A DNA stretch of 63,914 nt from Candidatus Omnitrophota bacterium (GCA_022705945.1 JAKJDL010000009.1:1-63914); one strand, 5' to 3'. Positions 50,273-55,235 are shown, numbered from the stretch's first letter. Numbers and translations are program-made. Notes: a model not told the origin generated them from the sequence alone.

Positions 50273-51142
50273 CTATTTCAGGGCCTGAGCGAGGGCCTTG
50301 AACTGCCCGGTGGTCAGCTCTTCTCCGCGAACCTTTGACGACAGGCCGAGCTTTTCGAAGGCGGATTCAATTTCCGGCCGCTCCCTTTTGGGTTTCAGAT
50401 ATTTCAGAAGAAGAGAAAGAAGGGTTTTGCGGCGTTCGCAGAAGGCGATGCGGATCAGCTCGGGCAGGAAGGTTTCGTCGCCGGCAGACGGGGCGTGGTT
50501 GAACGTAAAGCGGATCACGCGGCTTGTCACCTCCGGAGCCGGAAGGAAGCATTTGGGCGAAACGTCGAACAGAGTCTCGGCCGTCCCGAAAAGAGAGGAA
50601 GAAACACTGAGGCGCCCGTAGTCCTTTGTCCGCGGTTTCGCCGTCATACGCGCCGCCACCTCTTTTTGCATCATCAGCACCGCCGAATGGAAACACTCCC
50701 GGTGATCGATCAGATGGAACAGGATCGGCGTAGAGATGTAATAGGGAAGGTTGCTAACAACCTTCCCTCCCCTACCAACACCCGGTGTTAAACACCGGGT
50801 GTTGGTAGGGGAGAATTTGTTGATGATCTTCGTCAGGTCGCAATCGAGGACATCTCCGGGAATCACTTCAAGAAGACCCGGGAAATGCGGGCCGACCTCA
50901 GCTTCAAGGATTTCGATAAACTTCGGATCTTTTTCGACAGCGATCACACGGTGACCGCGCGAAAGAATCTCGGAGGTCAACGCCCCAAGACCGGGCCCGA
51001 CCTCAAGAATTGTTTCGCCGTTTTCCAGGTCAAGAGCATCCACAATTTTCCGGACCGTATTAGGGTCCATCAAAAGATGCTGGCCAAGATGGCCCCGAAC
51101 CCGGACGCCGTATTTTTTAAGGAGATGAACCTGGCCAACCAT
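50273..51142 (-). CDS. rsmA: 16S rRNA A1518/A1519 dimethyltransferase, carrying an in-frame palindromic insert
   Basis: LGQHLL, EVGPGLGALT, VEKD, SNLPYYIS, MMQKEVA, YGRLSV, FLPAPEV, RRKTL. Confidence 0.96.
   Translation of the reverse strand: MVGQVHLLKKYGVRVRGHLGQHLLMDPNTVRKIVDALDLENGETILEVGPGLGALTSEILSRGHRVIAVEKDPKFIEILEAEVGPHFPGLLEVIPGDVLDCDLTKIINKFSPTNTRCLTPGVGRGGKVVSNLPYYISTPILFHLIDHRECFHSAVLMMQKEVAARMTAKPRTKDYGRLSVSSSLFGTAETLFDVSPKCFLPAPEVTSRVIRFTFNHAPSAGDETFLPELIRIAFCERRKTLLSLLLKYLKPKRERPEIESAFEKLGLSSKVRGEELTTGQFKALAQALK
50767..50813. repeat. 47-bp perfect palindrome inside rsmA
   Basis: CTCCCCTACCAACACCCGGTGTT-A-AACACCGGGTGTTGGTAGGGGAG: 23-bp arms, one central base. Confidence 0.95.
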
Positions 51143-53318: not shown

Positions 53319-55235
53319 TCAAGGTTTGTCGCTATCTTCCGTCCGCAATCTGTTTTTCTGCTCTTCGACCGCCCGTTTAAGCATTTTACAGTAAAGATCG
53401 AACCCGACGGCGTGGATGAAGCCGCTCTGCTCGTGACCGAGGAGGTTTCCGGCCCCGCGGATCTCGAGGTCCTGCATCGCAATCTTGAAACCGGACCCGA
53501 GCTCCACGAACCGCCCGATCGCGGCAAGGCGCTTTTCGGCATCAAGCGTCATCACCCAGTTCTTCGGGGTAAGAAAATAAGCGTAGGCCTGCCTCGCTTC
53601 CTTGAAACGGCCCACCCGCCCCCGGAGCTGATAAAGATCGGCAAGACCAAAGCAGTCGGCGCGGTTCACGATCAATGTGTTCGCGTTCGGGATATCGATC
53701 CCCGACTCGATGATATTCGTCGAGATCAGACAGTCGACCGCCCCTTTCATGAAGCTCATCATAACCTTCTCAAGGGCCTCGACCGGCATCTGCCCGTGAG
53801 CGACGCCGAAGCGGACGCCGGGCATGAGGTTCCTGAGCTTTTCGTGAATCTTTTCAATGTTTTCCACCCGGTTATGTACAAAATAGACCTGCCCCCTGCG
53901 TTCGACTTCACGCTCGATCGCCTGCTTCACGATATTCTCATGATACTCCATTACAAACGTCCGGACCGGCATACGATGTCGCGGCGGAGTGTCAATTACC
54001 GACATATCGCGGACACCGAGCAAGGCCATGTGGAGCGTCCTCGGGATCGGAGTCGCGGTAAGTGTCAAAACGTCCACCTGGCTCCTCATTTTTTTAAGCG
54101 CTTCCTTGTGCCGGACTCCGAAGCGCTGCTCTTCATCGATAATGACGAGCCCGAGCTCCTTGAACTCAACGTCGCGCGAAAGAAGACGGTGCGTGCCGAT
54201 CACGATGTCCGTCGCTCCCGTTTTAACCGAGCTGACCACCGCTTTCTGCGCGGCAGCCGTCTGGAATCTGGAAAGCAGGCCGACCGTCAGGGGAAATGTT
54301 TTGACACGGTCCTTGAGAAGGATGTAGTGCTGTTCGGCGAGAATGGTCGTCGGCACGAGGAATGCGACCTGCTTGCCGCCCGTCACGGCCTTGAACGCCG
54401 CGCGCATCGCGACCTCGGTCTTCCCGTAGCCCACGTCCCCGCAAAGAAGCCGGTCCATCGGTTTCGAGGTTTCCATATCGCCTTTAACCTCCTCGATCGC
54501 CCGCTTTTGTCCCCGGGTTTCCCGGAACGGAAACTCCGCCTCGAATTTTTTCTGCCAGTCGTGGTCTTCCGGAAAAGCGAAACCCTGCTGGACCCTGCGC
54601 CGGGCCTGGATCTCGAGAAGTTCGCCCGCGACCTTGTGAAGCGCCGTCCGGGTCCTTTGCTTGATCCGCTCCCACTCCCTGGTGTTGAGCTTCGTGAGCT
54701 TCGGTTCCCGGGCGGAGCCGCCGATGTAGCGCTCGACCGGTTCTTTCAGGGAAAGATAGAGGATCTCGGAATTCGCGTATTCGATCGCGTAACAACGTTC
54801 CTTTTTTCCTTCCAGCCGAATCTGCTTTGTTCCGAGGAAACGCCCGATTCCGTAATGGAAGTGAACGACAAAATCACCGCGTTTGAGATCCCCCGCCCCC
54901 TCCACCGGTTCAAAAGTCCCGAAGCGCTCTTCAAGCCGCCGGATTTTTTTCTTAAATTGTCCCGCGAGAGGGATAAGGAAAATCTCTTCGAATGAGGTGA
55001 AGCTTCTTCCTTCCGCGGGAGAAAAATCGCGGATCAGGGATAGCGTGTCGCCCCGGAAATCGAGGCGGACCGGCATCCGGTAGGTTACGGGATAAATATC
55101 GACAGTCCCCCCGCGAATGGAATATTCTCCGGGAAGCTCGACAAGATTTTTTTTCTGATAACGGAGAGCGTCCAAAACCGCTTCGAGTTCCTCAAAGCGT
55201 ATAGTTTCCCCGATCTTGAGATGCCTGATGTCCAT
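53319..55235 (-). CDS. mfd: Transcription-repair coupling factor, truncated 638-aa form
   Basis: [29 protein letters not shown] (RID), [60 protein letters not shown]. Confidence 0.95.

Follow-up and report, generated by a model that had tools for sequence, protein, structure and literature searches.

Our results support a model whereby a perfect 47-nt palindrome in the rsmA gene of a Candidatus Omnitrophota bacterium is, very probably, an inverted dimer of a REP unit from a small RAYT-associated REP/REPIN family, one copy of which became lodged, and is translated, in a loop of RsmA. The palindrome lies in the 63,914-nt stretch of DNA that was analysed (the window). An earlier sequence-only reading of the window had proposed a REP-type element lodged in frame, comparable to the Rickettsia palindromic elements (RPEs), and that proposal is now supported by dispersed copies of the family, by a RAYT-like gene and by an alignment of orthologues.

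A perfect palindrome in the coding sequence of rsmA

The features of the window that bear on this model are as follows.

50273..51142, minus strand: rsmA/ksgA, encoding the 16S rRNA A1518/A1519 dimethyltransferase; intact, 289 amino acids, host of the element (TIGR00755, PF00398, AlphaFold2)
50767..50813, unstranded: perfect palindrome, very probably an inverted dimer of a REP unit (REPIN-like); complementary arms, longest in the genome, identical in seven contigs
50767..50789, plus strand: left REP unit, with CTCCCCTACC as its outer tag and then the 13-mer AACACCCGGTGTT (50777-50789); tag-plus-13-mer layout as at other loci
50791..50813, minus strand: right REP unit, reverse complement of the left, with its 13-mer at 50791-50803 (repeat search)
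50768..50812, minus strand: 15 codons from the element, RsmA residues 111-125, SPTNTRCLTPGVGRG (ORF translation)
50743..50768, unstranded: second perfect hairpin, 11-nt arms and 4-nt loop, abutting the palindrome with a 2-base overlap (repeat search)

The repeat search and the ORF translation bear out the original description of a 47-bp perfect palindrome in frame in rsmA: two 23-nt arms (50767-50789 and 50791-50813), 100% complementary, are separated by a single nucleotide. The source genome (G000) is a metagenome-assembled draft of 1,578,136 bases in 50 contigs, and when its perfect palindromes (loop 0-8 nt) are ranked by length, that in rsmA comes first, the runner-up having arms of 18 nt. 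The near-palindrome that had been noticed within each arm is the 13-mer AACACCCGGTGTT, which both arms contain and which is palindromic in its own right, and pattern searches agreed that the window holds no further copy of the repeat. Only one of the three coding-strand frames through the element, the frame in use, is open; the other two hit TAG or TAA.

The same 47 nt occur unchanged and mid-gene in seven independently assembled contigs that differ in sample, pipeline and year (one NCBI MAG, which is the window itself, four Logan runs and two JGI metagenomes), which excludes the assembly fold-back that had been named as a result that would overturn the reading. One of the seven represents a variant strain, whose rsmA has five substitutions, all of them outside the palindrome. 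The exact RsmA protein is also recorded from several sources, the names of which point to Candidatus Omnitrophota.

Elsewhere in rsmA, two 9-nt look-alikes of the half-site at 50873-50881 and 50987-50995, the latter consisting of codons of the SAM motif GPGLG, appear to be chance occurrences in which P-G-L/V codons mimic the repeat core. The second hairpin (50743-50768) consists of the rsmA codons for GKVV and NLPY and is absent from the orthologues examined, which have at most 5 bp there; it may reflect chance, synonymous drift or part of the footprint of the element.

The element occupies a predicted surface loop ahead of the NLPY motif

The host ORF, which lies in the gene string surA-pdxA-rsmA-ispB, gives a full-length match to TIGR00755 (ksgA; 249.8 bits against a cut-off of 171) and a match to PF00398 of 161 bits, and the SAM motif GPGxG and the catalytic NLPY are invariant in an alignment of 55 RsmA sequences. 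The element-encoded SPTNTRCLTPGVGRG stands directly ahead of GKVVSNLPYY. In an AlphaFold2 model based on the 55-sequence alignment (mean pLDDT 86.3, pTM 0.85), the insert is placed between helix 103-110 and strand 126-130, the strand leading into NLPY; pLDDT falls below 50 at residues 113-116 and 118-122 while the remainder is confident, and residues 111-125 probably form a disordered loop at the surface, ahead of the NLPY strand. We take this loop to be the connection before strand beta-4, on the side of class I methyltransferases that faces away from the cofactor-binding ends of the strands. RsmA carrying the insert would be expected to stay active.

The distance from GPG to NLPY is 81 in the RsmA of G000, and its mode, found in 76 of 120 homologues, is 72. 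The loop is therefore 9 residues longer than the mode and 10 longer than in the nearest orthologue (from G003), somewhat less than the "dozen or more" residues first estimated. Because this net gain of 27 to 30 nt is smaller than the 47 nt of the element, loop residues must also have been lost or replaced. As the proposed alignment of orthologues was meant to reveal, the insert is missing from G003 and from most of the 120 homologues. Equally long non-palindromic loops in orthologues had been named as a result that would refute the reading, and this applies in part: in the two congeners G001 and G002 the loop is three residues longer than that of G000 and unrelated in sequence. The reading nevertheless stands because the G000 sequence demonstrably belongs to a repeat family. 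The small palindrome in the rsmA loop of G001 and G002 (GGAGCC-CGA-GGCTCC) founds no repeat family in those genomes, its counts being close to those of the control.

A search of 5.8 billion proteins returned no strain-level rsmA allele without the element, the nearest RsmA beyond the species being 68% identical, and exact-pattern scans of metagenome contigs with the rsmA flanks set 0-30 nt or 31-60 nt apart, the latter scan serving as the positive control, gave no match. Since a clean strain-level empty site was not found in these searches, we infer, rather than observe, that the rsmA copy came by insertion.

The palindrome belongs to a dispersed repeat family

A genome-wide search for copies, proposed in the sequence-only reading, found the exact 13-mer AAsACCsGGTsTT at 24 sites in G000 and at none in the reversed control. 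The 19-nt half-arm pattern with up to three mismatches gave 12 + 9 = 21 matches versus 0, and the 10-mer CAA[CG]ACC[CG]GG gave 72 versus 8. Most of 96 genomes of the order contain the exact 13-mer at 0-1 sites; it is enriched in G012 too, a genome in which the G000 RAYT query found no RAYT orthologue. Altogether, tagged units lie at ~33 loci on 16 contigs of G000, a low copy number for a REP family.

The general unit consists of a tag ACCC-n3-5-CC, the 13-nt mini-hairpin AAsACCsGGTsTT and the complementary tag. In the consensus, the outer tag reads ACCCACTCC / GGAGTGGGT or CCCTTCC / GGAAGGG, a GGTAGGG tag being present only in some copies, including that in rsmA, and inspection of the tags across the family loci did not yield GTAG or CGTC as a terminal consensus tetranucleotide. 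By inspection, the loci fall into three types.

Type A: fifteen hairpins of 42-46 nt, with the 13-mer apex enlarged to ~26 nt
Type B: ~7 single 27-nt units, e.g. C3:35545-35571 and C44:11115-11141
Type C: ~9 dimers, their two 13-mers being 1-17 nt apart

Among the type C dimers, that in rsmA has the closest spacing and is the sole perfect long one; further dimers are found at C2:2096, C8:6144, C9:38, C15:3216 and C33:43178. About 27 of the 33 loci are intergenic or overlap the last codons of a gene only, and the rsmA copy and five others are intragenic.

A 13-mer at C46:20264 in proA was set aside as a chance match in the motif QRPGVCNA, which is presumably a conserved motif of ProA. We also considered that the 13-mer might be a transcription-factor operator or an uptake sequence; the complementary outer tags and the dimers with variable spacing argue otherwise, and the copies in coding loops, at 3' ends and in the flanks of RAYT genes speak against it as well. 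Separately, C9:1-70 and C11:131260-131330 hold the same dimer element with an identical left flank, and the C9 copy is located at the start of its contig; probably the repeat broke the assembly or a segment was duplicated.

A RAYT-like gene is bracketed by hairpins of the family

A search of G000 with PF01797 (Y1 transposase) gave three matches.

G000:C11:53659-54330: RAYT-like gene, 224 amino acids; PF01797 match at C11:53866-54096, 35.7 bits, above cut-off
G000:C17:3181-3543 (L029:1465-1908), minus strand: canonical IS200/IS605 TnpA, separate from the RAYT-like gene; NF033573, 118.6 bits
G000:C3:43742-43849: short remnant of a Y1 transposase (PF01797), ~200 nt from the type A hairpin at C3:44043-44068

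The first of these, the single intact RAYT-like gene in G000, answers the suggestion that a RAYT or IS200-like gene be sought: type A hairpins in the same orientation bracket it at C11:53529-53554 and 54381-54406, ~65-95 nt from each end of the gene. These flanking 42-46 nt hairpins share the tag and the half-sites of the rsmA element, and they are of the apex-expanded form and not of the exact 13-mer form seen in rsmA. The best NCBIfam model for the protein is NF047646, REP-associated tyrosine transposase (E 1.2e-18), with a score of 67.4 bits that is under the curated cut-off of 80. Its best relative in the PDB is E. coli TnpA-REP (4ER8; E = 8e-6 over ~100 residues), with which it aligns at the HUH histidines and the tyrosine motif Y-I-x-x-N-P. 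This arrangement suggests that the RAYT-like protein may mobilise or maintain the elements.

Orthologues of the RAYT-like gene in G003, G016, G021, G051, G055 and G070 are each flanked by palindromes of their own, mostly with an ACC-S-GGT-type core and, in G070, with a related TCC-S-GGA core. In G003, which belongs to the same genus and has a RAYT 64% identical to that of G000, a homologous 46-nt hairpin with the same outer stem and a different inner stem is present at 12 or more loci, both RAYT flanks included. Of ~9 G003 element sites that could be mapped, three have an intact element of the G000 type at the orthologous position in G000, and at a fourth the G000 counterpart has decayed. In G001 and G002, the G000 RAYT query found no match and the repeat family was not found.

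Copies within and at the ends of other genes

Besides rsmA, five genes of G000 contain an internal copy in frame, and among them all three frames of the 13-mer are used. The peptides encoded by these elements are listed here.

queA: STPGVG
SLOG/LOG-family gene: STPGAEKLFKHPVL
ygiQ-type radical SAM gene: PTPGLG
periplasmic binding-protein gene: FQHPVLEG
membrane-protein ORF on C15, with no Pfam match: NTRCLKDLLTPGV

Five genes end within an element, which supplies the last residues / stop codon and yields C-termini such as ...NTRA* and ...KTRSLIQRPGL*.

coaX: G000:C11:156029-156811
yqeY: C48:1570-2061
mrp/NUBPL: C33:43192-44250
hydF: C8:4869-6197
ygiQ: C2:332-2128

None of the 15 type A hairpins, which have a stop in one frame per orientation, is located inside a gene, and 6 of ~17 type B and C loci are. 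ORFs that run across type A hairpins (C1:10636-11532, C48:1741-2829 and C11:53422-53937) were rejected as genes, their translations being junk.

The orthologous loops of the congeners differ genome by genome. Those of G001 and G002 hold degenerate versions, for example TTPGV in G001 queA, and the membrane-protein orthologues of G002 and G003 read KTRCLK. In G003 the loops hold other palindromes of unrelated sequence, for example a perfect one with 13-nt arms in queA (L033) and one with 10-nt arms in the binding-protein gene (L041). It follows from these differences that the sites within genes are old and that their sequences turn over.

A separate observation concerns the orthologues of the C15 membrane-protein ORF in G003 (L038) and G002 (L039), which are identical in DNA over the printed stretch and each have one in-frame TAG where the G000 ORF runs 637 codons unbroken; they could be two genes, a pseudogene or a shared contamination.

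Palindromes recur in the same loop of RsmA

Three other metagenomic RsmA genes hold the identical 13-mer in the same loop and in the same frame, as a perfect palindrome with 17-nt arms (P0003), as a dimer of which the second unit is degenerate (P0010) and as a single tagged unit (P0014). In each of these genes, and likewise in that of G000, exactly 12 nt separate the end of the last 13-mer from the Lys codon of K-V-I/V. These four sequences are scattered on a tree of RsmA calculated with the loop masked, on which four changes are needed, at least three of them forced by well-supported branches. Because close relatives of P0010 and P0014 keep the conserved modal loop common to them, the 13-mer copies of these two are independent gains. 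The same loop holds a different palindrome, with arms of ~20 nt, in G055 and yet another in P0005, and most Omnitrophota rsmA genes, including those of other 13-mer-rich genomes such as G051, have no hairpin there. Judged from these sequences, the RsmA loop is a recurrent home of palindromic inserts, for which either targeting or mere tolerance could account.

Discussion

We propose that a REP copy lodged in the RsmA loop between helix 103-110 and strand 126-130, ahead of the catalytic NLPY. It might have landed as a dimer, or as a single 27-nt unit of which the apex was later extended and perfected by hairpin-templated synthesis. Since no frame of the 13-mer has a stop, and neither has the dimer in the frame that rsmA uses, the element would be translated as a 15-residue loop that the enzyme tolerates. 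Selection would purge copies that land elsewhere in genes, while permissive loops and gene ends would keep theirs.

A bolder version, which we consider doubtful, is that surface loops of essential proteins (the pre-NLPY loop of RsmA and loops of QueA, YgiQ and the binding protein) are heritable landing pads, where a RAYT-dependent process repeatedly installs a palindrome, or overwrites it with the current master REP, and where decay follows once the RAYT is lost. Several observations point in this direction: the same 13-mer unit is found at the same rsmA junction in four tree-separated lineages and unrelated palindromes are found there in others; the copies within genes are near-perfect in G000, which has a RAYT, replaced by other palindromes in G003, which has another type of REP, and degenerate in G001 and G002, where no RAYT was found; and intergenic elements at orthologous sites have a genome-specific sequence. 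If true, housekeeping coding sequence would be continually rewritten in lineages that keep a RAYT.

Alternatively, the palindrome might have grown in place, a half-site or quasi-palindrome having copied itself by intrastrand template switching, with a likeness to REPs that stems from a shared CCSGG-rich core only. Such an origin would suit the perfect symmetry about a 1-nt centre, the net gain that does not equal a plain insertion of 47 nt and the unrelated palindromes in the same loop of other lineages; moreover, at this position relatives with the modal loop have DNA that contains CCCGG and encodes G-P-G-V/A. We nonetheless judge it unlikely, since the rsmA copy has the full family layout, with both outer tags and both 13-mers, like the copies between genes and those in four other genes, and since the identical 13-mer with family-type tags is present in the same loop of at least three other, unrelated lineages. 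A hybrid route, in which a REP insertion was subsequently perfected by template switching, is likely and is counted here under the REP explanation.

It is also conceivable that the hairpin is a selected cis-element, with the peptide as a by-product, that controls mRNA stability or translation in surA-pdxA-rsmA-ispB, for instance as an RNase III site, or that binds a protein at the DNA level. The mRNA of the palindrome and the adjoining 11-bp hairpin folds with -61.4 kcal/mol (z = -11), the 23-nt DNA arms corresponding to a stem of 20 pairs in the MFE structure and 21 in the centroid, and processing of this duplex is conceivable because G000 encodes an RNase III homologue; the different palindromes in the same loop of separate lineages could reflect convergence. 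The palindrome is also unaltered in the strain variant that differs elsewhere in rsmA, but at 5 differences per 870 nt an unchanged stretch of 47 nt is what chance predicts. An Rfam search of the RNA segment gave nothing above threshold and only generic hairpin matches below it, and the lack of a hairpin at this loop in most Omnitrophota rsmA genes, G051 included, speaks against a regulatory role. Because similar elements occupy loops of unrelated genes, gene 3' ends and intergenic sites, a dispersed selfish or neutral repeat fits better than a gene-specific regulator, and we hold a cis-element to be very unlikely. Finally, perfect palindromes are classic products of assembler or amplification errors and G000 is a draft of 50 metagenomic contigs, but a fold-back or chimeric join that made the inverted duplication can be dismissed in view of the seven concordant contigs, the preserved reading frame, the membership in a dispersed family and the similar palindromes at the same site in related species.

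The preferred reading, that of a REP dimer from a RAYT-associated family, finds its closest parallel in the REP/REPIN-RAYT systems (REPtrons). As in these, the units are short palindromes, single or in close inverted dimers, dispersed mainly in intergenic regions and near 3' ends; a RAYT-type Y1/HUH gene lies between cognate repeats; and each lineage has a repeat sequence of its own, which varies along with the orthologous RAYT, in line with the differences in REP sequence between related genomes with orthologous RAYTs (Nunvar 2013, PMC3686654). Unlike in these systems, the host belongs to the Omnitrophota, there are only ~33 loci, the hairpin of the unit is no longer than 13 nt, the palindrome in rsmA is perfect over 47 nt around a centre of 1 nt and the RAYT scores under the NCBIfam cut-off. 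REP units end in a conserved GTAG or CGTC tetranucleotide (Di Nocera 2013, PMC3733652; Nunvar 2010), whereas the tag here is ACCC-n-CC / GG-n-GGGT without that consensus. The family thus shows the defining features that were tested, except the GTAG/CGTC tag and a high copy number. E. coli TnpA-REP (RayT/YafM, PDB 4ER8), with its REP/BIME repeats, is the best solved relative of the RAYT-like protein; the Omnitrophota protein differs by an N-terminal extension of ~70 residues, and the cognate DNA sequence and tag differ as well.

Intragenic REPs are themselves known, often as in-frame dimers in genes for known proteins of Opitutus terrae, Thauera, Xanthomonas and R. conorii (Di Nocera, De Gregorio, Rocco 2013, PMC3733652). 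They are spread over several phyla, Opitutus terrae being a PVC bacterium, and more than half are dimers that encode 20-30 residues; in two Xanthomonas species REPs are found at about the same site in recB (PMC3733652). The phenomenon is therefore already known, and what is new here is the phylum, the family itself, a copy that is perfect over 47 nt and the way one RsmA loop is used recurrently.

Two other kinds of element are less close. RPEs, as they are described in later papers that cite the original work, are palindromic repeats in frame in Rickettsia housekeeping genes, those of the RPE-1 type having ~100-150 bp and encoding 30-50 residues (Ogata et al. 2000, via PMC3733652, PMC10969869). 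On that description they resemble the elements studied here in adding in-frame peptide segments at fold-compatible sites in many unrelated genes of one genome. The present element has 47 nt and 15 residues, its family is tied to a RAYT-like gene and its host is not an obligate intracellular alphaproteobacterium; size and host set it apart from the RPE families, and the likeness is functional only. For the classical long elements of the RPE-1 type, we know of no cognate transposase. Bacterial MITEs, among which in-frame fusions are known for ERIC, BOX, Correia and Anabaena MITEs, are likewise small and non-autonomous and can be translated within a host ORF (review PMC10969869), but they measure 70-300 bp, share their terminal inverted repeats with a parent IS and usually have target-site duplications. 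No parent IS, TIR structure or target-site duplication was seen for the rsmA element.

These findings extend RAYT-linked palindromes that write peptides into essential proteins to the Omnitrophota, a phylum of uncultured nanobacteria, in a case where a single genome shows in-frame copies alongside a candidate for the cognate RAYT. The repeated palindromes make the RsmA loop a suitable site at which to distinguish targeted from merely tolerated insertion. For annotation, the findings are a warning that odd loop extensions of conserved enzymes in these genomes may be repeat-derived and that several genes end within repeats.

Finally, we note that on the minus strand of contig C47 of G000, valS has two in-frame inserts ~1.3 kb apart with ~20 nt in common, encoding PDGRVPG, and that the metagenomic RsmA P0061 has PDGRVP in the same loop of RsmA. 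To go by their sequences, these inserts suggest a second in-frame repeat family in Omnitrophota.
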